NCBI GenBank assembly: GCA_937881055.1
Contig: CALGFJ010000061.1
Coordinates: forward strand, 1 to 47,857
Length of the DNA: 47,857 nucleotides
Origin: an uncultured Acidimicrobiaceae bacterium
GTDB lineage: Bacteria > Actinomycetota > Acidimicrobiia > Acidimicrobiales > RAAP-2
Reading direction: 5' to 3'
In this document: positions 26,304 to 39,039 of the stretch, piece by piece
Layout: each line of letters begins with the position of its first letter
Position numbering within the stretch: the stretch's first letter is position 1
Made by a program: the position numbers and the translations under genes
Notes under the pieces: model-generated
Seen by the model: only the letters and a program-made list of their open reading frames with translations
What the model was told of the DNA's origin: nothing
The model's database searches: none

Positions 26304-27554
26304 ATGGCTACCGCGTCGTTCGCGCCGCTTCGTCACCGGAGTTTCGCCCTTTCACTGACCTCGTCGTTCGTCTCGTCGACGGGCACCTGGATGCAGACGG
26401 TCGCACTCGGGGTGTACCTCACGGAGACGACGCACAACGCGGTGTGGCTCGGGCTCTTGACGGTGTGCGCGTGGACGCCAGCATTGATCGGCGCGCCGTT
26501 GGGCGGTGTGATCGCGGACCGCGTGATTCGACAGCGCTGGATTCAGGCGAACAATTTCGTGATGGCCCTCACGGCGAGCGCTCTCGCCACGGCGGAACTG
26601 ACCCATCACCTCTCTCCGCAGTTGGCGTGCTATCTCGCCATCGTCGAAGGACTTTGCTCCTCGGCGTCGTGGGCCGCGTGGCAGTCGCTGTTGCCGGACC
26701 TCGTTGATCGAGACGAGGTCTTCGCCGCCGTGTCCCTCTCGTCGGCGCAGTTCAATCTCGGTCGCATCATCGGCCCCTTGTTGGCCGGCGTGACGCTGGC
26801 CTTCGGATCGCCGGGGATCTGCTTCGCGATCAACGCCGCGTCGTTCGTCTTCGTCGTCGTGATCTTCTCATTCGTGCGCTGCGCTCACCGGCCCAAGCCG
26901 ACCACGCCAATTCGCATCTGGTCCGAGACGAAACACGGCGCGAAGCGAGCCTGGTCAGTAAAGGGCTGTCGCTACCCGATCCTCGCCATTGGGACCGTCG
27001 CGCTCATCGCGAGCCCCTTCATCGCGTTGGTTCCGGCCATGGCGATCCAGACGTTGCACTCCGGACGGATCGGGGTGTCGTGGCTCGTGACGGCGCAGGG
27101 CGTGGGCGCGGTCATCGGGGCGGTGACGTTGCCGGCGCTCGCGCGACGCACGTCGCGGATCGCGGTGTTGCGAGGCTCGGTGGCGACGGTCGCGTTGGCG
27201 CTCGCCCTCTACGGGTTGGCGCCGACGTTGGCGCTCGCCGTCGCGGCCCTGGTCTTGCTCGGCGGTGCCTACGTCGGCACGTTGACGGGTCTCAACACCG
27301 CCGTGCAATTGCACGCACCCACGAGCGAACGCTCGCGCATTCTCTCGCTCTACACGCTGTCATTGTCGATCTTCTATCCGCTCGGTGCCCTCGTGCAAGC
27401 GGCCATCGCCAAGACGTGGGGCGTGCGTCCGGTCACGGTCGGGGCCGCGGTTCTGCTGGCGCTCGTGCTGGGTTTCGTGACCCTGCGGCGCCCGGCGTTC
27501 TGGCGCGAGATCGCCGTGACGCCGAATGAGCCTGTTGTTTTGCTGGCAGACTAG
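26304..27554 (+). CDS. MFS transporter (MFS_3/DHA3-like)
   Basis: FAPLRHRSF...GTWMQTVA, GGVIADR and FNLGRIIGP motifs. Confidence 0.85.
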   Translation: MATASFAPLRHRSFALSLTSSFVSSTGTWMQTVALGVYLTETTHNAVWLGLLTVCAWTPALIGAPLGGVIADRVIRQRWIQANNFVMALTASALATAELTHHLSPQLACYLAIVEGLCSSASWAAWQSLLPDLVDRDEVFAAVSLSSAQFNLGRIIGPLLAGVTLAFGSPGICFAINAASFVFVVVIFSFVRCAHRPKPTTPIRIWSETKHGAKRAWSVKGCRYPILAIGTVALIASPFIALVPAMAIQTLHSGRIGVSWLVTAQGVGAVIGAVTLPALARRTSRIAVLRGSVATVALALALYGLAPTLALAVAALVLLGGAYVGTLTGLNTAVQLHAPTSERSRILSLYTLSLSIFYPLGALVQAAIAKTWGVRPVTVGAAVLLALVLGFVTLRRPAFWREIAVTPNEPVVLLAD

Positions 27555-27558
27555 GGGG

Positions 27559-28923
27559 ATGTCATTCACCGCAATCAATCCCGCCACCGAAGAGTTCGTC
27601 GCTGAGTTTGAGGCTCACAGCGACGCCGACGTCGAACACGCGCTCGCCCACGCACACAGCGCGTTCGAGGCGTGGCGGGGCACCCCGATATCGGAGCGCG
27701 CACACCTGATGATTCGAGCGGCCGAGCTGCTCGAGAGCGAGATCCCCGTCGTCGCCGAGCTCTTGACCAGCGAAATGGGAAAGACCTTCACCGCGGCGAA
27801 GGGCGAAGTAGCCAAGTGCGCCTTTACGATGCGATACTACGCCGAGCACGCCGAGGCCATGCTGCGCGACGAGGACGTCGCAACGAGTGGGTCGCGCAGT
27901 GGTATCCGCTACGACCCGATCGGCGCCGTGCTCGCGGTGATGCCGTGGAACTACCCGCTCTGGCAGTTCATCCGCGTCGCCGCGCCGACCGTCATGGCGG
28001 GCAACGTGATGGTCCTCAAGCACGCCTCCAACGTGCCGGGATGCGCGAAGTTCATCGAGGACCTCTTCACGCGCTCGGGATTCCCCAAGGGCGTCGTGAC
28101 GACGCTCTTCGTGAGTCACGATCAAGTCCCGCGCATCATCGCCGACCCGCGCATCGCCGCGGTGACGCTCACGGGATCGGATCGCGCCGGTCGCTCGGTC
28201 GCTGAAGCCGCCGGACAGCACCTGAAGAAGTCGGTGCTCGAATTGGGCGGTTCGGACCCCTTCATCGTGGCGAGTTCGGCCGACATGGACGCGACGATTC
28301 CCCTGGCGGTCACCGCGCGGCTCCAGAACAACGGGCAGTCCTGCATCGCCTCGAAGCGCTTCATCGTCGTGCGCGAACGCGCTGAGGAGTTCATCGATCG
28401 CTTCGTGAGCGCGATGGCCGCGGTGCCGACGGGCGATCCCATGGACCCCGCGACGGTGCTCGGTCCGGTCGTGAGTCGCTCGCAACTCGACGAGTTGACG
28501 TCCCAGGTCGCCGACGCCATCGCCAAGGGCGCCGTCGCGCGAACCGGTGGCGCGCCGCTCGAGAGGCGGGGCTACTACTTCCCGGCGACGGTCTTGACCG
28601 GCGTACCGACCGACTCGCGCGCCGGCAGCGAAGAGCTGTTCGGCCCGGTCGCAGTCGTCGAAGTCGTCGACGACCTCGATGCCGCGATCGCCTTCGCGAA
28701 CGCGACACCGTGGGGACTCGGCGGCGCAATTCACGCCACTGATCAGAAGGAAGTTGACGCCGCGATCGCCGGACTCGACGTCGGCATGGTCTTCGCCAAC
28801 TCCGTCGTCGCCTCGATGCCCGAGCTGCCCTTCGGCGGCACGAAGGATTCCGGTTTCGGACGAGAACTGGGAGAGTTTGGCGTGCGCGAGTTCACGAACG
28901 TCAAGTCCTACTACGTGGCGTGA
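27559..28923 (+). CDS. NAD(P)-dependent succinate-semialdehyde dehydrogenase (GabD1/Sad-like)
   Basis: AVMPWNYP, LKHASNVP, LELGGSDPF, NNGQSCIASKR and PFGGTKDSGFGREL motifs. Confidence 0.88.
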   Translation: MSFTAINPATEEFVAEFEAHSDADVEHALAHAHSAFEAWRGTPISERAHLMIRAAELLESEIPVVAELLTSEMGKTFTAAKGEVAKCAFTMRYYAEHAEAMLRDEDVATSGSRSGIRYDPIGAVLAVMPWNYPLWQFIRVAAPTVMAGNVMVLKHASNVPGCAKFIEDLFTRSGFPKGVVTTLFVSHDQVPRIIADPRIAAVTLTGSDRAGRSVAEAAGQHLKKSVLELGGSDPFIVASSADMDATIPLAVTARLQNNGQSCIASKRFIVVRERAEEFIDRFVSAMAAVPTGDPMDPATVLGPVVSRSQLDELTSQVADAIAKGAVARTGGAPLERRGYYFPATVLTGVPTDSRAGSEELFGPVAVVEVVDDLDAAIAFANATPWGLGGAIHATDQKEVDAAIAGLDVGMVFANSVVASMPELPFGGTKDSGFGRELGEFGVREFTNVKSYYVA

Positions 28924-30083
28924 CACAGTATTACTTCGATCACGCGGCGTCGGCGCCCCGTCGCGACGAAGTCGCCGACGCTATGGCGCGCTGGCAGCGC
29001 GGCGTCGTCGGTAATCCCTCGGGCAGCCATAGGGCGGCGCGTGACGCTCGACGGGCGGTCGAAGAGGCGCGTGACGATGTGGCGTCGTTTCTCGGAGCCA
29101 AGCCGGGCGGCGTCATCTTCACCGGCGGCGGTACCGAGTCCTGCGCCCTCGCAGTCTTCGGAGTGACCAGTCACCACCGTCGCACGCACGAGAACTCCGA
29201 GATCCTCATCAGTCGCATCGAGCACCACGCGATCAGCGACGCCGCCGAAAAGATGGCGCGCGACTTCGACGACGTGCGCGTGCGCTACATCGACGTCGAC
29301 AGCGACGGCGTCGTAGACCTCGACTCGCTGATGTCGCTCCTCAGTGACGACACCGCACTCGTGAGCGTCATGGCGGCCAACAACGAAACGGGCGTGCGAC
29401 AGCCGCTCGACGGCGTGAGTGCTCTTTCGAAGTCCATCATTCCCGGCGGCGTCCTCACTCACAGTGACGCCATCGCCGCGGCGTCTGGGGTGCACCTCGC
29501 CAACATGACCGCGACCATCGACATGATCTCGATATGCGCCCACAAGATCGGCGGGCCCGTGAACTCCGGCGCGCTGGTCTTGCGCAGCGACATCGCCCTC
29601 GAAGCGTTGATTCCCGGCGGGGGACAAGAACGCGGCCGTCGCGGCGGCACCGTCGACGTCGCCGCCGCCGTCGGGCTGGCTGCGGCCGTGCGCGTGACGA
29701 TGAAGGAACTCGCCGACGTCACCGACCGGGTCCTCGACCTCCAGGAGAAACTCGTGGCGGCCGTGAGCCTGATTCCCGGATGTCTCGTCACCGGCCTGGG
29801 GGCGCTTCGCGTGCCCGGTACCGTTCACGTCACGTTCGAAGATCTGGCGAGTGACGAACTGCTCTTTCTCCTGGACCAAGAAGGCGTGTGCGCGTCGGCG
29901 GCCGCGAGCTGTTCGAGTGGCGCCGCGAGCCCCAGCCACGTGTTGGCCGCGATGGGCGTGTCGCCCGAGCGCGCACGCGGGTCACTTCGACTCTCGATGG
30001 GGGCCGAGACGACCGAAGCGGACGTCGATGCCGTCATCGCCATACTGGCGAGCGTGGTCTACCAATTGCGCGGCGAGGCATAA
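28920..30083 (+). CDS. iscS: Cysteine desulfurase (IscS/NifS family)
   Basis: YFDHAAS, ANNETG, AHKIGGP (PLP lysine) and ASCSSG (catalytic Cys). Lies directly upstream of mnmA. Confidence 0.85.
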   Translation: MTQYYFDHAASAPRRDEVADAMARWQRGVVGNPSGSHRAARDARRAVEEARDDVASFLGAKPGGVIFTGGGTESCALAVFGVTSHHRRTHENSEILISRIEHHAISDAAEKMARDFDDVRVRYIDVDSDGVVDLDSLMSLLSDDTALVSVMAANNETGVRQPLDGVSALSKSIIPGGVLTHSDAIAAASGVHLANMTATIDMISICAHKIGGPVNSGALVLRSDIALEALIPGGGQERGRRGGTVDVAAAVGLAAAVRVTMKELADVTDRVLDLQEKLVAAVSLIPGCLVTGLGALRVPGTVHVTFEDLASDELLFLLDQEGVCASAAASCSSGAASPSHVLAAMGVSPERARGSLRLSMGAETTEADVDAVIAILASVVYQLRGEA

Positions 30084-30111
30084 CGGGCCCTGCGACTGGC
30101 AGACTAGGTCG

Positions 30112-33197
<3,086 letters not shown>

Positions 33198-33225
33198 GTT
33201 CAAATCGGTAGGGTTATTAGGGACT

Positions 33226-35127
33226 ATGCCAGCGCCTACCTTTGCCAACGGTCACCTTTTGGTCAACCGATATCGAATCCAGGAACTCCTGGGCATTGGC
33301 GATACGGCCGAGGTCTATCTGGCCGACGACCAGTCGCTGCAGCGCTCGGTGGTCGTGAAGGTGCTCTTGCCGCGTCTCGCGGGACACGAAGATGTTCGCC
33401 GTGCCTTCCGCGAACGAATCATCAAGGCCGCCACCCTCAGCCACTCGCACCTCGCGCGCGTCTTTGACGGGGGCCAGGAGTCCGGATCCATATTCATGAT
33501 CTGTGAGTACTTGAGCGGGGGATCGCTCGAGGACGTTCTGTCGAGCGGACGCACGTTGAGCGTCGATGACGGCGCGCGCCTCGGTCGCGACGTCGGCAGT
33601 GCATTGGCCTATATCCACGAGAACGGCATGGTGCACGGGGCGCTCTCGCCGTCGAAGTTGCTCCTCGATGAAGAAGGTCGCGTGCGAGTGAGCGATATCG
33701 CGTTGGCGGGAATCGGCAAGGAGTACCGCGAACGCTTGACGCTCGACGACGTGCGGTTCCTCAGTCCCGAACAGGCGATCGGCGACCCCGCCAACGCCCG
33801 CAGCGACGTCTACGCCCTCGCCCTGATCCTCTACGAAGCCGTGACCGGCATCACGCCCTTCGATGGCGTGACGCCCGAGGCGGTGTTGCGCGCGCGCATC
33901 AACGCGACGCTGCCGATGCGTCCGGAACTCGGCACCCTCGACATGCTGCTCGCCCAGGCGGCCGTCGCGGACCCTCGCCTTCGCCTGGACGCCGAACAGT
34001 TCGCCAGTCGCCTCGGTGCCGTCGTGAGTGATTTTGCGCCGCTGGTGATCGCCCCGGTCGCGCGCGACGTACCGCTGCTGAGCCAGTACCGACCGTCCGA
34101 ACCGCGCAACTCGATCGGTTTTCGACCTCCGTCGCCCGATCAGATCACGGGCGCGACCGCCGTCGTCTCTTCGCTCGGGCGCACCGGCGCACCGCGTCAC
34201 GCGCGACCGGCCGACGAGTGGGTCGCCACGAGCTCGCCCGTCGCTCGGAACCGCAACCTTCGCGACGAATTCGATGACCTGGACTACGGGCGACTCCCGC
34301 AGTCTCGTCGACTCGTCTTTCTCGTGGCGGCGCTGGTGCTGCTCGTGGTGGCCATCGGCGGCGGCATCGCCTGGAAGGTCGGACTCTTCACCCAGAGCAA
34401 TTCCGTACCGAACTTCGTGGGTGTCAACTTGGGCGAATACCAGAACGTCCAGTTCACGAGCAGTGCGCCGATCAACAGTTTGCGCTCTACCGTGAAGGCC
34501 GACGGATTCCTCGTCACCATCAAGCACGCGTACTCCGCGAGCGTGAAGACCGGCACGATCATCTCGCAGTCACCGGTGTTCAACACCGAAGCGAAGAGCG
34601 GCCAAGTGGTCACCGTCACGGTTTCTGACGGCGTGCAGACGGTGCGGTTGCCGGCTCACCTCATTGGTGAGACCTGTAATGCGGCCACCACCCAGCTCAC
34701 CCGCCTGCACCTCGTCGTCAGGTGCCCGGCGTCGCAGATGATCGCGAGCTCCACGACCCCAGTCGGTCGCATCGCTCGCGTGGTCAATTCCGCCGGCAAG
34801 TCGATCACGTCGGCGTTAGTGCATTCGACGGTGGTCCTGGAACGAAGCACCGGTACGGTCGCGTCAACCACGACCACGACCGTCGCGACGACACCCACGA
34901 CCACGACGACGGTTGCCGCCCAGACATTGGTCGCGGTGCCCAACGTCGTGGGCAAGAACGAGGCCCAGGTGCACGCGGCGATGACGGCTGCCGACCTCTA
35001 CTACCACACGACCGGTCCCGGCGCCTCGGCAACGAATCCGACCTGGACGAAGGTGGTGTCGGAGAGTCCCGTCGCCGGTACGAAGGTTAAGAAGCTCTCG
35101 TCGGTGACGTTGACCGTCACTAAATGA
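33226..35127 (+). CDS. Membrane Ser/Thr kinase-like protein with extracellular PASTA-like repeats; predicted pseudokinase
   Basis: Kinase fold (RYRIQELLG, VVVK, SPEQ, SDVYAL), one TM segment and PASTA-like VPNFVG/VPNVVG repeats. Catalytic loop reads HGALSPSK, and DIA replaces DFG. Confidence 0.85.
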   Translation: MPAPTFANGHLLVNRYRIQELLGIGDTAEVYLADDQSLQRSVVVKVLLPRLAGHEDVRRAFRERIIKAATLSHSHLARVFDGGQESGSIFMICEYLSGGSLEDVLSSGRTLSVDDGARLGRDVGSALAYIHENGMVHGALSPSKLLLDEEGRVRVSDIALAGIGKEYRERLTLDDVRFLSPEQAIGDPANARSDVYALALILYEAVTGITPFDGVTPEAVLRARINATLPMRPELGTLDMLLAQAAVADPRLRLDAEQFASRLGAVVSDFAPLVIAPVARDVPLLSQYRPSEPRNSIGFRPPSPDQITGATAVVSSLGRTGAPRHARPADEWVATSSPVARNRNLRDEFDDLDYGRLPQSRRLVFLVAALVLLVVAIGGGIAWKVGLFTQSNSVPNFVGVNLGEYQNVQFTSSAPINSLRSTVKADGFLVTIKHAYSASVKTGTIISQSPVFNTEAKSGQVVTVTVSDGVQTVRLPAHLIGETCNAATTQLTRLHLVVRCPASQMIASSTTPVGRIARVVNSAGKSITSALVHSTVVLERSTGTVASTTTTTVATTPTTTTTVAAQTLVAVPNVVGKNEAQVHAAMTAADLYYHTTGPGASATNPTWTKVVSESPVAGTKVKKLSSVTLTVTK

Positions 35128-35423
35128 GTCGCGGCTGCGACCTCTGTGAAGCGGCCGTCATCACCACGCGTTACTTCGAGGACGACGTCTGCTGGATCGC
35201 CGATTGTGAGATCTGCCTCGTACCGATGGTGGTCTGGATCAAGCACGACGACACGCCGCCGGATGACGTCAAGGATCGGCTCCGATCGGCCTTGCGAACC
35301 GTCGCCGACGTGGAGTTCGGCGACGGCAACTGGTCCTATGACGATCACATGCGCAACATCCCCGATCACTACCACGCGCATGCCCGGCCGCCCTATTTCT
35401 GGCGTCGGGGCCAGCAGCGGTAG
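35124..35423 (+). CDS. Small HIT-like Cys/His-rich protein
   Basis: CDLC, CEIC and C-terminal IPDHYHAH motifs. ATGA overlap with the kinase-like gene. Confidence 0.7.
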   Translation: MSRGCDLCEAAVITTRYFEDDVCWIADCEICLVPMVVWIKHDDTPPDDVKDRLRSALRTVADVEFGDGNWSYDDHMRNIPDHYHAHARPPYFWRRGQQR

Positions 35424-35475
35424 CCCTCGGCATCGTCATTACAATCGAAACACCACAATCATTTAAGGGGTCACC

Positions 35476-36354
35476 ATGGGTGCGCTGGACGGTCGCGTAG
35501 CAATCATCACCGGAGCTGGTCGCGGCATCGGGCGAGAGCACGCACTGCTCTTCGCCCACGAAGGCGCCAAGGTTGTCGTCAATGACCTCGGCGGCGCGTT
35601 GGATGGCTCGAGTCACGCCGCCTCGCCCGCCGAAGAGGTCGTCGCCGAGATCAAGGCCATCGGCGGCGAAGCCGTCGCCAATCACGACAACGTCGCGGAG
35701 TGGGAAGGTGGACAGCGTCTCGTGCAATGCGCACTGGAGACCTTCGGCACGTTGCACGTATTGGTGAACAACGCTGGGATTCTGCGCGACCGTGTGTTGG
35801 TCAACCTCAGTGAAGAAGACTGGGACTCGGTCATCAACGTTCACTTGAAGGGCCACTTCGTACCGACCCGCCACGCCGCGAACTACTGGCGCGAAGAGGC
35901 CAAGGCGGGACACCCGGTGAAGGCCGCGATCATCAATACGTCCTCGACCTCGGGCCTGCTGGGCAACATCGGTCAATCGAACTACGGTGCCGCGAAGGCC
36001 GGCATCGCCGCGTTCACGGTCATCATCGCCGAAGAGCTCGGTCGCTACGGCGTGCGCGCGAACGCGATCGCGCCCGCCGCGCGAACTCGGATGACCGAGT
36101 CCACGCCCGGTCTTTCGGATCACGTCGTGGCGCCGTCGGACGCGTCGGTCTTTGACACCTGGGACCCCGCCAACATCTCGCCGTTGGTCGCGAGCCTCGC
36201 GATGGAGGACTGCGACATCACGGGCCAGGTCTTCTTCGTACAGGGCGGCACCGTGCGAAAGTTTCAGAATTGGACGATGACCGCGACGCTCGAGAAGAAC
36301 GATCGCTGGTCGGTCGCCGAACTGGCCGCGCAACTGCCCACACTGTTGCAGTGA
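35476..36354 (+). CDS. Short-chain dehydrogenase/reductase (hydroxyacyl-CoA dehydrogenase-like)
   Basis: TGAGRGIG, VVVNDLGG, NNAGILRD and YGAAK motifs. Confidence 0.92.
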   Translation: MGALDGRVAIITGAGRGIGREHALLFAHEGAKVVVNDLGGALDGSSHAASPAEEVVAEIKAIGGEAVANHDNVAEWEGGQRLVQCALETFGTLHVLVNNAGILRDRVLVNLSEEDWDSVINVHLKGHFVPTRHAANYWREEAKAGHPVKAAIINTSSTSGLLGNIGQSNYGAAKAGIAAFTVIIAEELGRYGVRANAIAPAARTRMTESTPGLSDHVVAPSDASVFDTWDPANISPLVASLAMEDCDITGQVFFVQGGTVRKFQNWTMTATLEKNDRWSVAELAAQLPTLLQ

Positions 36355-37973
36355 GCGCTCCGCGCCCGGGGGCGCATGTCGACCGCGAAGACGCTGACGG
36401 TCTGCTCAACGCGCGCACCGATCCCGGATCGGGCGCGTTCGGCACGCTCGGCACCGAGGCCGGGAGCGATCTCAACTGGTTCTTCCTATTGCGTCATCGC
36501 GTGCAGGCGCGCGCCGAAGGTTCCTCGCGGTACCAGTGGTGGGTGTTGTGGTCACTGCTGGCCGGACTCTTCGCCCTGAACTTCACCTTCACCGTGTTCA
36601 TCGTCGCGTTGCCGACGGTGGCCGCACAGTTCCACACGAGTGTCACGGTATTGACCTGGACGATGGTCGGGCCACTCCTCGCCTACGGACTCGCCGCGCC
36701 GATCCTCGGCAAGACCGGTGATATCTACGGGCATCGGCGCCTGTATCTCTTCGGACTCTTGGGCGCGATGGTCTCGGCGTTGTTGACCGCGCTCGCGCAC
36801 AACGTCGACATGTTGTTGTTCGCGCGAACCCTCGACGGCGTCCAGGGCGCCGCCACGGGCACGGCGTCGGGGGCGCTGATCAACTCGGTCTTCGGTCGCG
36901 AAGAGAGAGTGAAAGCGATGGGCTGGTGGAGCCTCGTGGGGGCCGGAGGACCGGTCATCGGCGTCTCGCTCGGCGCGCCGATCATCGCCGCCTTCGGATG
37001 GCGCGCGCTCTTCTGGTTCCAATTGGTGCTGATCGTCGTCGCGTTTGGCGTCGTGTCAATCGTGCTGCCCAAGCGTCGGGGACTCGATCACGAAGAGGCC
37101 GAGAAGAAGGCGCAAGCACGGCGTGAGTTCAAGGAGATGGACTGGATCGGCAGTTGGTCGCTGTCGATCGCCGTGACCGCGCTCATGCTCGGCCTGTCGA
37201 TCGGACCGAGCACGGGTTGGACGAGCGTGTGGTGTCTCGGCACCTTCGTGCTCGCGGTGGTGATGACCGCCGCGTTCGTCCATCGAATCCGAACGGCCGA
37301 GCACCCCTTGATTCCGGCCGAGTATTTCCATCGAAGAAATTTCGTGATGCCGATGGTGTTGCGCGGTGCGGCGAATTTCGCCTACTTCGGTGCGTTCTTC
37401 CTCTTTCCCCTCCTCATGGAACAGGGGTACGGCTACTCGATCCCGCACGTCGGCGCGCTTGCCATCGCTCGTCCCATCACGTTCTCGCTCTGTTCGCCGA
37501 TCGCCGGCTACGTGGCCGTTCGCATCGGCGAACGCGTGAGTGCGATCGCCGGCGCCACGTTCCTCGCGGCGTCGCTCGGGTTGTTCGCGCTCTTGCAGCC
37601 GAGCTCGGGCACGTGGGTCATCGCGATCGCGCTCGCGCTCTCGGGGCTCGGCATGGGAGTCGCGATGCCCTCGTCGAGTTCGGTGATGGCCAATGAAGTG
37701 AAGACCAACGAATTCGGTGTCATGTCGGCCGCCCAGATGCTCGCGATGCAGGTCGGCGAAGTGGCCGGCATCCAAGTCCTCGAGACCGTGCAACAGGCCC
37801 TGGTTCGTCGCCGCGGGCTGCTGCACGCCAAGCCCGGACCGGCGTTGCTCGCGACCTTCCACCTCCCGTTCATGATCGGTGCGTGCGTCGGTGCGCTCGG
37901 GTTGTTCGCGTCGCTCTTCATACGTTCGATTCCGCGAAGCCGCAAGGAGAAGGCGCTCGCAAGCGACCGGTAG
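36351..37973 (+). CDS. MFS transporter, 14-TMS (DHA2-like)
   Basis: GKTGDIYGHRR motif A and GWRALFW. GTG start overlaps the SDR stop codon. Confidence 0.85.
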   Translation: MSAPRPGAHVDREDADGLLNARTDPGSGAFGTLGTEAGSDLNWFFLLRHRVQARAEGSSRYQWWVLWSLLAGLFALNFTFTVFIVALPTVAAQFHTSVTVLTWTMVGPLLAYGLAAPILGKTGDIYGHRRLYLFGLLGAMVSALLTALAHNVDMLLFARTLDGVQGAATGTASGALINSVFGREERVKAMGWWSLVGAGGPVIGVSLGAPIIAAFGWRALFWFQLVLIVVAFGVVSIVLPKRRGLDHEEAEKKAQARREFKEMDWIGSWSLSIAVTALMLGLSIGPSTGWTSVWCLGTFVLAVVMTAAFVHRIRTAEHPLIPAEYFHRRNFVMPMVLRGAANFAYFGAFFLFPLLMEQGYGYSIPHVGALAIARPITFSLCSPIAGYVAVRIGERVSAIAGATFLAASLGLFALLQPSSGTWVIAIALALSGLGMGVAMPSSSSVMANEVKTNEFGVMSAAQMLAMQVGEVAGIQVLETVQQALVRRRGLLHAKPGPALLATFHLPFMIGACVGALGLFASLFIRSIPRSRKEKALASDR

Positions 37974-37984
37974 GCTCTTTACCT

Positions 37985-38740
37985 ATGAACGACGACATTA
38001 TGCCCGGCTGCGAGCCCTTTTCGTCCGCGGGAAATTCGATGGGTGTGCTGATCCTGCACGGATTCACCGGCAACCCGTACTCCATGCGACCTCTGGCGCA
38101 GCGCTGCGCCGAGGCGGGCTACAGCGTCGAGTTGCCGCGATTCCCCGGTCACGGCACCTCGATCGAAGACCTCGTGCCGCGCCGTTGGCCCGACTTCGTC
38201 GACGTCGCCCTCGGCGCGTTCGATGAACTGTCCGGACGCTGCGACAAGGTGGCCGTCATCGGCCTCTCGGTCGGCGGGGGACTCACGGCCCTGATCGCCG
38301 AGGAGCGTCCCGGAATCGCCGGATGCGTCTTCATCAATCCGATGCTGAAGGGCCCCGGCGCCGAATTAGAGCAGGGACTGCGGGACTTGATCGATTCCGG
38401 TCTCGAAATAATGGCGACGGACGGAAAATCTGACATCAAGAAAGAGGACACGACCGAGGCGAAATACGAAGGGTGGCCGCTTCGCGCGCTGCAGAGCGTC
38501 ATCGAAGGCGTGGAGGACGTCAACGCCAAGATGTCGTCGATCACGGTGCCGAGTCTCTTGATCTCCAGCCGCGAGGACCACACGGTCGCGCCCGAGAACG
38601 GTGACGAGATCGTCGAGAGGTCCTCGGGTCCCGTCGAACGGATCTGGCTGGAGGAGTCGTATCACATCGCCACGTTGGACAACGACCAAGAGCTGGTCGA
38701 GCGTGCGACGATCGAGTTCCTCGCGAAGGTTCTGGAGTAA
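37985..38740 (+). CDS. Alpha/beta-hydrolase carboxylesterase (Est30/YvaK-like)
   Basis: LHGFTG, PGHGT, GLSVGG nucleophile elbow, EDHTV and SYHIATLD motifs. Confidence 0.9.
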   Translation: MNDDIMPGCEPFSSAGNSMGVLILHGFTGNPYSMRPLAQRCAEAGYSVELPRFPGHGTSIEDLVPRRWPDFVDVALGAFDELSGRCDKVAVIGLSVGGGLTALIAEERPGIAGCVFINPMLKGPGAELEQGLRDLIDSGLEIMATDGKSDIKKEDTTEAKYEGWPLRALQSVIEGVEDVNAKMSSITVPSLLISSREDHTVAPENGDEIVERSSGPVERIWLEESYHIATLDNDQELVERATIEFLAKVLE

Positions 38741-39039
38741 TGCCCGGTCTGAAACGCGAAGACGTCGCGCACGTCGCCAAACTGGCGCGACTGACGATGA
38801 GTGAGAGTGAACTGGATAAATTCACCGTGCAGTTGGGCCAGGTCCTCGATCACGCCAGCGACATGAACGCGCTCGATCTCGACGGCGTCGTCGCGACGGC
38901 GCATCCCTTCGGACTCATAAACGTCGTTCGTGACGACGAAGTGCGCCCGGGCCTCGACCACGACGCGGTGATGGCGATGGCGCCCGACGCGCAAGACGGG
39001 CGCTTCGCGGTCCCGCGCATCCTGGGTGAGGCGCCGTGA
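38740..39039 (+). CDS. gatC: Asp/Glu-tRNA amidotransferase subunit C
   Basis: [18 protein letters not shown] and FAVPRIL motifs; directly upstream of gatA. Confidence 0.93.

Follow-up and report, generated by a model that had tools for sequence, protein, structure and literature searches.

What does a membrane receptor do when it has the layout of a bacterial PASTA kinase and lacks the residues on which catalysis depends? This question is raised by a gene lying behind ligA in a 47,857-nucleotide stretch of DNA (the window: GenBank assembly GCA_937881055.1, contig CALGFJ010000061.1, positions 1 to 47,857) from an uncultured Acidimicrobiaceae bacterium. The genome, here G000, is 92% complete, and the relatives with which we compared it are uncultured metagenome-assembled genomes. 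Our analysis leaves very little doubt that the protein is a maintained pseudokinase. As to its role, the reading we prefer, at a probability of about 45%, is that of a non-enzymatic co-receptor which would pair back-to-back with PknB, the cell's intact PASTA kinase, and tune PknB activation. The gene and the segments that define its layout are the following.

33226..35127, + strand: PASTA receptor pseudokinase gene, 633 amino acids (open reading frame translation, Pfam, NCBIfam)
33259..34029, + strand: pseudokinase domain, residues 12-268 (AlphaFold2 (AF2) model; predicted local distance difference test, pLDDT, 94; predicted template modelling score, pTM, 0.87)
34312..34368, + strand: transmembrane helix, residues 363-381 (hydrophobic segment, AF2)

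The frame begins 28 bases past the ligA stop and encodes 633 amino acids without an internal stop, intact as a preliminary description of this locus had stated. A longer open frame from a GTG at 33091 runs into ligA; Met1 (33226) is an invariant column in a 66-row alignment. GC content, overall and at third codon positions, is like that of the adjoining ligA. A promoter scan of positions 27000-39000 gave no promoter-like site, and two terminator-like sites against 6.4 expected. Pfam recognised Pkinase (E 7e-28) and PASTA (E 1e-19) in the protein. The best NCBIfam model, NF033483 (Stk1-family PASTA kinase), scored 260 bits, below its cutoff of 450: the kinase domain, transmembrane helix and extracellular PASTA repeats of that family are present, and its intact VAIK lysine, alphaC glutamate, HRDxKxxN and DFG are not. 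Full-length AF2 modelling from a shallow alignment resolved the kinase domain poorly (pTM 0.26); a 140-row alignment led to a confident fold, and the solved folds closest to the domain model are PknA and PknB. Three PASTA-like units (about residues 391-469, 472-543 and 569-633) are folded confidently in the full-length model. Pfam and AF2 thus bear out the PknB/PknL layout of kinase fold, transmembrane helix and about three PASTA repeats that had been proposed.

The catalytic positions were as follows.

33358..33360, + strand: beta-3 Lys45, kept; present in 64/80 loci of the genus
33415..33417, + strand: Arg64 replacing the alphaC Glu; Glu in 10/80 loci of the genus and 89/89 intact orthologues
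33634..33657, + strand: catalytic loop HGALSPSK, degenerate; of HRDxKxxN the Arg, Asp, Lys and Asn are changed, the final Asn to Lys144
33694..33771, + strand: DIA replacing DFG, with the Asp retained; activation segment shortened by four residues, GT motif absent

These positions were compared in the window's genus (g1) across 80 loci of 79 genomes, selected as the top matches plus the most divergent ones, and across the best 120 of 723 homologues found (55-99% identity). The motifs read earlier stand where they had been placed: GIGDTA at residues 23-28, VVVK at 42-45, HGALSPSK at 137-144 (33634-33657) and DIA at 157-159 (33694). The activation segment lacks the GT motif, as claimed, and its reported shortness is a property of the genus, with 26 residues from the DFG Asp to the APE Glu in 66 of 79 loci versus 30 in 81 of 88 intact orthologues. 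Alignment to solved PknB added two losses, that of the alphaC Glu (Arg64) and that of the catalytic-loop Asn (Lys144). HRD and Asn144 occur in 0/80 loci of the genus (Lys144 in 66), the DFG Asp in 78/80, and no locus keeps more than three of the six catalytic residues. Position 139, that of the HRD Asp, varies among Ala, Ser, Glu, Gly and Asp. The loop is covered by 119 of the best 120 homologues: the HRD Arg and the Asn are absent from all of them, and Asp stands at position 139 in six. In StkP, D136N, D154A (the HRD and DFG aspartates) and E61A (the alphaC glutamate) each kill activity (PMC13434768). Defined from sequence, a pseudokinase is a kinase fold in which one or more of beta-3 Lys, HRD Asp and DFG Asp are missing (PMC12599244). 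Here the fold is confirmed and the HRD Asp is gone, as it is in 77/80 loci of the genus, the other three being without Arg and Asn.

Three polar residues of the former active site, Lys45, Lys144 and Asp157, are nevertheless the majority state of the genus. Metal-free nucleotide binding through them is plausible, by analogy, because the lysine of ULK4 at the same Asn-to-Lys change contacts ATP (bioRxiv 10.1101/2020.06.18.159293). A fast-evolving subclade (L143, L146 and L147, from G451, G554 and G508) is without the beta-3 Lys and without Leu38, and reads SPQ for APE; having lost Leu38, it offers a test, provided by nature, of the back-to-back pairing considered below.

Are these losses real, and are they old? 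Sequencing error was ruled out by the absence of HRD from all 80 loci and by a contig from a soil metatranscriptome library, which covers the catalytic loop. This contig spans 33480-33895 and differs at two letters; the listed difference (33687) falls on a third codon position and is silent; DNA carry-over into the library is possible. Strain-level or recent decay was ruled out by the same absence of HRD and by a low ratio of nonsynonymous to synonymous substitution rates (dN/dS). Close orthologues retaining HRD and DFG, which the preliminary description had named as the observation that would overturn it, did not appear either in the genus or among the covering homologues (Arg in 0/119). For the nine closest genome pairs, dN/dS is 0.029-0.057 in the kinase domain versus 0.021-0.049 in PknB and 0.060-0.089 in the ligA part; the ectodomain lies at 0.18-0.28 in eight of the nine. 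These pairs have dS of 0.67-1.06, and every one includes G000, hence they are non-independent; dS is saturated in more distant pairs. The degenerate kinase domain is thus under purifying selection like that on intact PknB, a point which the preliminary description had proposed to check. The frame is full-length in 73 of the 74 genus loci left uncut by a locus or contig end; of all 79, five are cut in this way and one (G561) stops early at 421 amino acids. The PknB frame of G561 is likewise short (435 amino acids), which points to assembly errors. At a ligA distance of 0.3-0.4, the catalytic and activation segments diverge by 0.55 in the genus versus 0.12 in intact orthologues, and the non-catalytic positions of the kinase domain by 0.51 versus 0.34. 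Catalysis has therefore been released and the fold retained.

The origin of the pseudokinase could be followed through its conserved upstream neighbour.

31167..33197, + strand: ligA, upstream neighbour and conserved synteny marker (Pfam/NCBIfam)

ligA lies at most 1.5 kb upstream in 79/80 loci of the genus, in 67/80 loci of other genera of the family and in 12/16 loci of other families. Outside the genus, the kinase linked to it keeps Lys, Glu, HRDxKxxN and DFG together in 89/96 loci, and all three orthologues tested from sister genera pass the NF033483 cutoff (458-471 bits). Because this ligA-linked orthologue retains all catalytic motifs so widely, the pseudokinase is, judged from sequence comparison, the degenerate descendant of a second, formerly active PASTA kinase of Acidimicrobiia. 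Seven loci are exceptions: all five of g2, which read HGA and have a beta-3 Arg but keep Glu and Asn; that of g165, with HGD; and that of one g147 genome, with HSA. These same-locus copies (L013, L069, L070, L075 and L080 in g2, L057 in g165, L044 in g147) differ in their substitution patterns and keep four PASTA repeats. A sister of L044, L034 (G343, g147), has intact HRD and DFG and has lost the GT motif, possibly an early stage of loss. On the ligA tree at least three state changes are needed, the g147 case being nested among intact relatives with starred support; in an approximately unbiased (AU) test, a single clade of g1, g2 and g165 was not rejected (p 0.327). At least two losses of catalysis are likely. 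Deep branches of the genus still have the alphaC Glu and sometimes DFG, which indicates stepwise decay. In a library at 50% identity, 24 of the 116 top kinase domains examined are without HRD, most of them with the signature of the ligA-linked pseudokinase family. Four library representatives (P0185, P0261, P0165 and P0218) have neither an intact HRD nor this signature and are possibly further independent pseudokinases.

Outside the kinase domain, the receptor has changed in its juxtamembrane region and in its ectodomain.

34105..34146, + strand: juxtamembrane motif, residues 294-307, core GFxxPS (conserved in alignment)
34396..34632, + strand: PASTA repeat 1 (Pfam, AF2)
34639..34854, + strand: PASTA repeat 2 with conserved cysteine pair C484 and C500 (alignment, AF2)
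34861..34923, + strand: Thr-rich linker at the place of PASTA3 of intact orthologues (repeat comparison)
34930..35124, + strand: genus-specific terminal PASTA repeat, common to the RlpA-like protein G000:C66:181-1335

The GFxxPS pattern, which was derived from the same sequences in which it was counted, is found in 67/78 genus loci, 6/6 of g2 and g165, 12/16 of g3, g147, g164 and g152, 2/56 other loci of the family and 0/16 loci of other families. It thus marks the part of the family that holds every observed loss, and is older than the losses. The model shows order at residues 301-310 of this region (pLDDT 83). The juxtamembrane region of StkP, once phosphorylated, serves to recruit division proteins (PMC12077195).

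Intact orthologues, and g2 and g165, have four PASTA repeats, where the genus has two, the Thr-rich linker (62/73 in the genus versus 1/89 elsewhere) and a terminal repeat of its own type, whose nearest group is PASTA4. Only the closest relatives show an insertion of about 14 residues in PASTA1 (residues 403-416; 34432-34473). A profile of the terminal repeat, built from genus sequences, matched 121/121 genus genomes, and 105 of these gave more than one match. Its best score outside the genus, in a sample of 201 drawn across the order, was 43 bits, versus 87-105 inside. No terminal repeat of this type was seen on an HRD-intact kinase among the 116 library domains. In G000 the extra copies lie in the C66 protein (L179), which has an N-terminal hydrophobic segment, two terminal-type PASTA repeats (47% and 37% identical to that of the pseudokinase) and a Thr-rich linker, and ends in a double-psi barrel of RlpA-like type. 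Its RlpA-like assignment rests on atlas features (0.92), and Pfam gave no match to this domain at E 0.05. The RlpA-like gene occurs family-wide (108/151 genomes), with terminal-type PASTA in 8/11 complete copies of the genus and in 0/18 copies of other genera; these 8 are the only extra-copy loci opened for the terminal PASTA. Receptor and RlpA-like repeats form one clade (98). The repeat was likely copied from the receptor to the hydrolase-like protein, because deep branches of the genus carry it on the pseudokinase alone. Its presence on both suggests a shared target, and the two proteins may be co-targeted. Three frames (G444:C8, G550:C42 and G469:C248), of pseudokinase length or partial, contain two terminal-type copies each. 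In other systems, the hydrolase LytB is put in place by PASTA4 of StkP (PMC10434722), and the PASTA3-4 linker is where mycobacterial PknB binds lipid II (PMC6428115).

Which intact kinase could the pseudokinase work with? G000 has two intact Hanks kinases, on contigs C274 and C233. The first is PknB (NF033483, 568 bits), in the usual FHA-FHA-phosphatase-penicillin-binding protein (PBP)-kinase cluster, whose genes are named here after their motifs. A TnpB-like transposon frame (G000:C274:6299-7975, L177) immediately precedes the first FHA gene of the cluster, and no rodA or pknA was seen between the PBP and phosphatase genes. The other kinase (G000:C233:6045-7592, L178), the third Hanks-type protein of the genome, has intact motifs, a transmembrane helix and a weak FIMAH-like ectodomain, and is an alternative partner. 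The HRD, DFG and GT motifs of PknB are intact in 50/50 genus genomes opened, and its HRD-DFG segment is intact in 5/5 genomes with the other degenerate copies. The surface through which the pseudokinase could meet PknB lies on its N-lobe.

33268..33468, + strand: N-lobe back surface, R15, D35, L38, R40 and D81, predicted dimer face (alignment, complex model)

In the alignment to solved PknB, L38 and D81 fall on L33 and D76, which are residues of the PknB back-to-back interface (PMC13434768). All five residues are kept in 75/79 genus loci. The domain had been proposed for modelling alone and together with the PknB of its genome. The complex of PknB 1-280 with pseudokinase 1-275 scored 0.70, the best of 3 controls 0.00; 116 of 157 solved complexes attain the mark applied to such scores, as do 2 of 215 mismatched pairs. 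Contacts agree between runs to 82% or more, the partner has a pLDDT of 86 or higher, and the modelled interface is the symmetric N-lobe one, burying L38 and PknB L36. Mean conservation in the genus is 0.71 for the 24 interface residues, as compared with 0.64 overall and 0.56 on the side that faces the substrate. A catalytically dead partner can activate through the back-to-back surface: kinase-dead PknB is reported to boost the autophosphorylation of wild-type PknB, and L33D to abolish the boost (bioRxiv 10.64898/2026.10.08.757607).

These data are consistent with the following mechanism. The PASTA repeats would place the pseudokinase at a site of the cell wall, where its N-lobe would pair back-to-back with intact PknB; this predicted heterodimer would tune, and probably promote, PknB activation without any catalysis by the pseudokinase. 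Wall binding or sensing is suggested here only by the PASTA domains, a type that typically binds the cell wall, and the direction of regulation, for which we favour activation, is likewise inferred. The preliminary description had proposed a cell-wall-sensing scaffold or an allosteric partner of an active kinase; this proposal fits the retained dimer surface and the PknB complex model, and stands as a prediction. A longer history would have catalysis lost repeatedly after the gain of a juxtamembrane docking motif, the protein now an allosteric activator of PknB, and a new wall-address PASTA later copied onto an RlpA-like lytic transglycosylase, targeting sensor and hydrolase to the same site; the outcome would be a pair of receptors serving peptidoglycan signalling, a kinase with its natural pseudokinase counterpart. 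That this account holds in its entirety appears unlikely.

Several observations weigh against the co-receptor reading. Solved PknB homodimers exist, and the pass of the complex model may show likeness and not binding. The five dimer residues are equally conserved in all intact orthologues, which folding or homodimerisation may explain, and L38 is missing in 4/79 genus loci. As many as 717 of 10000 random residue sets reach 0.71, so the interface conservation is marginal. In 63/79 genus loci A65 is replaced by I together with W82 by G, where 96/96 loci outside have A and W; this pocket swap is probably one event. Lys45 is gone in 16/80 loci, so nucleotide binding is not universal. The loss of PASTA3 removes the counterpart of the lipid II-binding linker, and wall sensing may have changed. 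Finally, the pseudokinase gene is unlinked to pknB.

The protein could instead be a scaffold independent of PknB: a back-to-back homodimer, positioned by its terminal PASTA, whose juxtamembrane motif recruits division or wall proteins, possibly after phosphorylation by PknB. We regard this as a serious possibility and a doubtful one. The ordered juxtamembrane segment fits it, as do the presence of the motif in most genus loci and in all six degenerate copies of g2 and g165, and its origin before catalysis was lost. The MviN pseudokinase dimerises back-to-back and recruits FhaA after phosphorylation by PknB (PMC12599244), and the StkP precedents for juxtamembrane recruitment (PMC12077195) and for PASTA4 positioning LytB (PMC10434722) point the same way, the terminal PASTA being common to the RlpA-like protein. 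A scaffold, however, would sit less well with close pairs in which the whole kinase fold, and not one surface, is under selection as strong as that on PknB, and the linked genes are ligA and the HIT-like gene described below, with no other partner gene.

The same interface evidence, dimer residues and complex model alike, would serve an inhibitory decoy that binds PknB, or competes for its wall ligand or substrates, and damps its signalling. Having lost the Lys-Glu bridge, the domain may be held in a shape like that of an inactive kinase, and mycobacterial PknB is hyperactive after loss of ligand binding, so a brake would be useful (PMC6428115). However, the sole kinase-dead partner tested stimulated PknB (bioRxiv 10.64898/2026.10.08.757607), and the substrate-facing activation segment and alphaG are the least conserved part in the genus (0.56 versus 0.80 in intact orthologues). 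We therefore consider a decoy improbable.

A residual or altered enzyme, in which Lys45, Lys144 and Asp157 support slow phosphotransfer or another nucleotide reaction, is more improbable still. The prevalence of the three residues speaks for it, and ULK4 holds ATP through the same Asn-to-Lys change. But ULK4 shows no sign of catalysis in the text available (bioRxiv 10.1101/2020.06.18.159293), Lys45 is not universal, and position 139 drifts, so no catalytic base is being selected. A slowly decaying relic without function, which the roughly 1.5-fold faster evolution of non-catalytic positions and the early stop in G561 might suggest, is largely refuted by the close-pair dN/dS of 0.03-0.06, by the full-length frames and the short PknB of G561, and by the terminal PASTA in every genus genome searched, and can practically be set aside.

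Downstream, the pseudokinase is followed by a second conserved neighbour.

35124..35423, + strand: 99-amino-acid HIT-like gene, its start overlapping the stop of the pseudokinase gene; downstream neighbour, conserved in the family

This gene is found downstream in 64/80 loci of the genus, 68/80 of other genera and 0/16 of other families. Its product has CxxC and HxHxH motifs; the HIT likeness is an atlas lead only (0.85); Pfam, NCBIfam and the PDB yielded nothing that matches the protein, and it is not similar to the kinase either. If it is a HIT hydrolase, its place near ligA would bring to mind the aprataxin-type repair of aborted ligation.

The locus bears on a current debate, in which PASTA kinase activation is attributed to back-to-back allostery or to trans-phosphorylation (bioRxiv 10.64898/2026.10.08.757607; PMC13434768): with two soluble domains, a paralogue that is naturally dead, retains the back-to-back surface and sheds the substrate-facing one would put it directly to the test. 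The ligA-linked family also documents at a single locus, as is rarely possible, the whole passage from intact enzyme to pseudokinase, intermediate states being found in g165, g2, one g147 genome and the deep branches of the genus. The PASTA common to the receptor and the RlpA-like protein gives a handle on what individual PASTA repeats recognise. If the longer history outlined above is true, the kinase/pseudokinase pair would be a bacterial parallel to the active/dead receptor pairs of eukaryotes. Our literature search found no description of a PASTA receptor pseudokinase or of an Acidimicrobiia pseudokinase, and earlier computational catalogues may include one. Kwon et al. 2019 are said to name a PASTA-linked bacterial pseudokinase family. 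PASTA is unmentioned in the accessible parts of PMC7586955 and 10.64898/2026.09.18.752743. New here are the replacement of PASTA3 by a Thr-rich linker and the genus-specific terminal PASTA shared with an RlpA-like cell-wall protein.

How does the protein compare with known systems? By the descriptions available, it fits none of the seven bacterial pseudokinase families of O'Boyle and colleagues. All members of ActPs1, ActPs2, ActPs3 and GLW are without the beta-3 Lys and 98-100% without the DFG Asp (bioRxiv 10.1101/2025.01.12.632604), whereas Lys45 and Asp157 are present here. DYD pseudokinases have beta-3 Lys changed to Arg, a DYD motif and the catalytic-loop Asn kept (PMC12599244), against VVVK, DIA and Lys144. 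CP1 has no transmembrane helix and a linked COG3899 domain (PMC12599244), and all DLHK members lack the beta-3 Lys (bioRxiv 10.1101/2025.01.12.632604); the present protein has a transmembrane helix, PASTA repeats and Lys45.

Among individual systems, PknB, StkP, PrkC and Stk1 (NF033483; the KAPD family of O'Boyle et al.) share with it the kinase-transmembrane-PASTA layout, the fold and the N-lobe dimer residues. It differs from them by the absence of HRD, the catalytic-loop Lys and Asn and the alphaC Glu, by its shorter activation segment, by its score below the 450-bit cutoff, and by an ectodomain of three PASTA repeats and a Thr-rich linker where those kinases have four repeats. The MviN pseudokinase domain (ActPs3) is another actinobacterial membrane pseudokinase tied to wall metabolism, with conserved back-to-back dimer residues (PMC12599244), but has none of the three catalytic motifs, an occluded ATP pocket and no PASTA, whereas Lys45 and Asp157 are mostly kept here. 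EssB/YukC is likewise a bitopic bacterial pseudokinase acting as a scaffold (PMC12599244); it belongs to a type VII secretion machine, none of which is linked at the pseudokinase locus. The eukaryotic ULK4 shares by convergence the catalytic-loop Asn-to-Lys change that contacts ATP (bioRxiv 10.1101/2020.06.18.159293), and shows the opposite pattern in an unrelated lineage, keeping the HRD Asp without the beta-3 Lys and DFG Asp. StkP PASTA4 and LytB resemble the present case in that a specialised distal PASTA type is connected to a wall hydrolase; there LytB binds the PASTA, whereas here copies of the PASTA itself sit on the RlpA-like protein, an arrangement that points to a common target rather than to direct binding.

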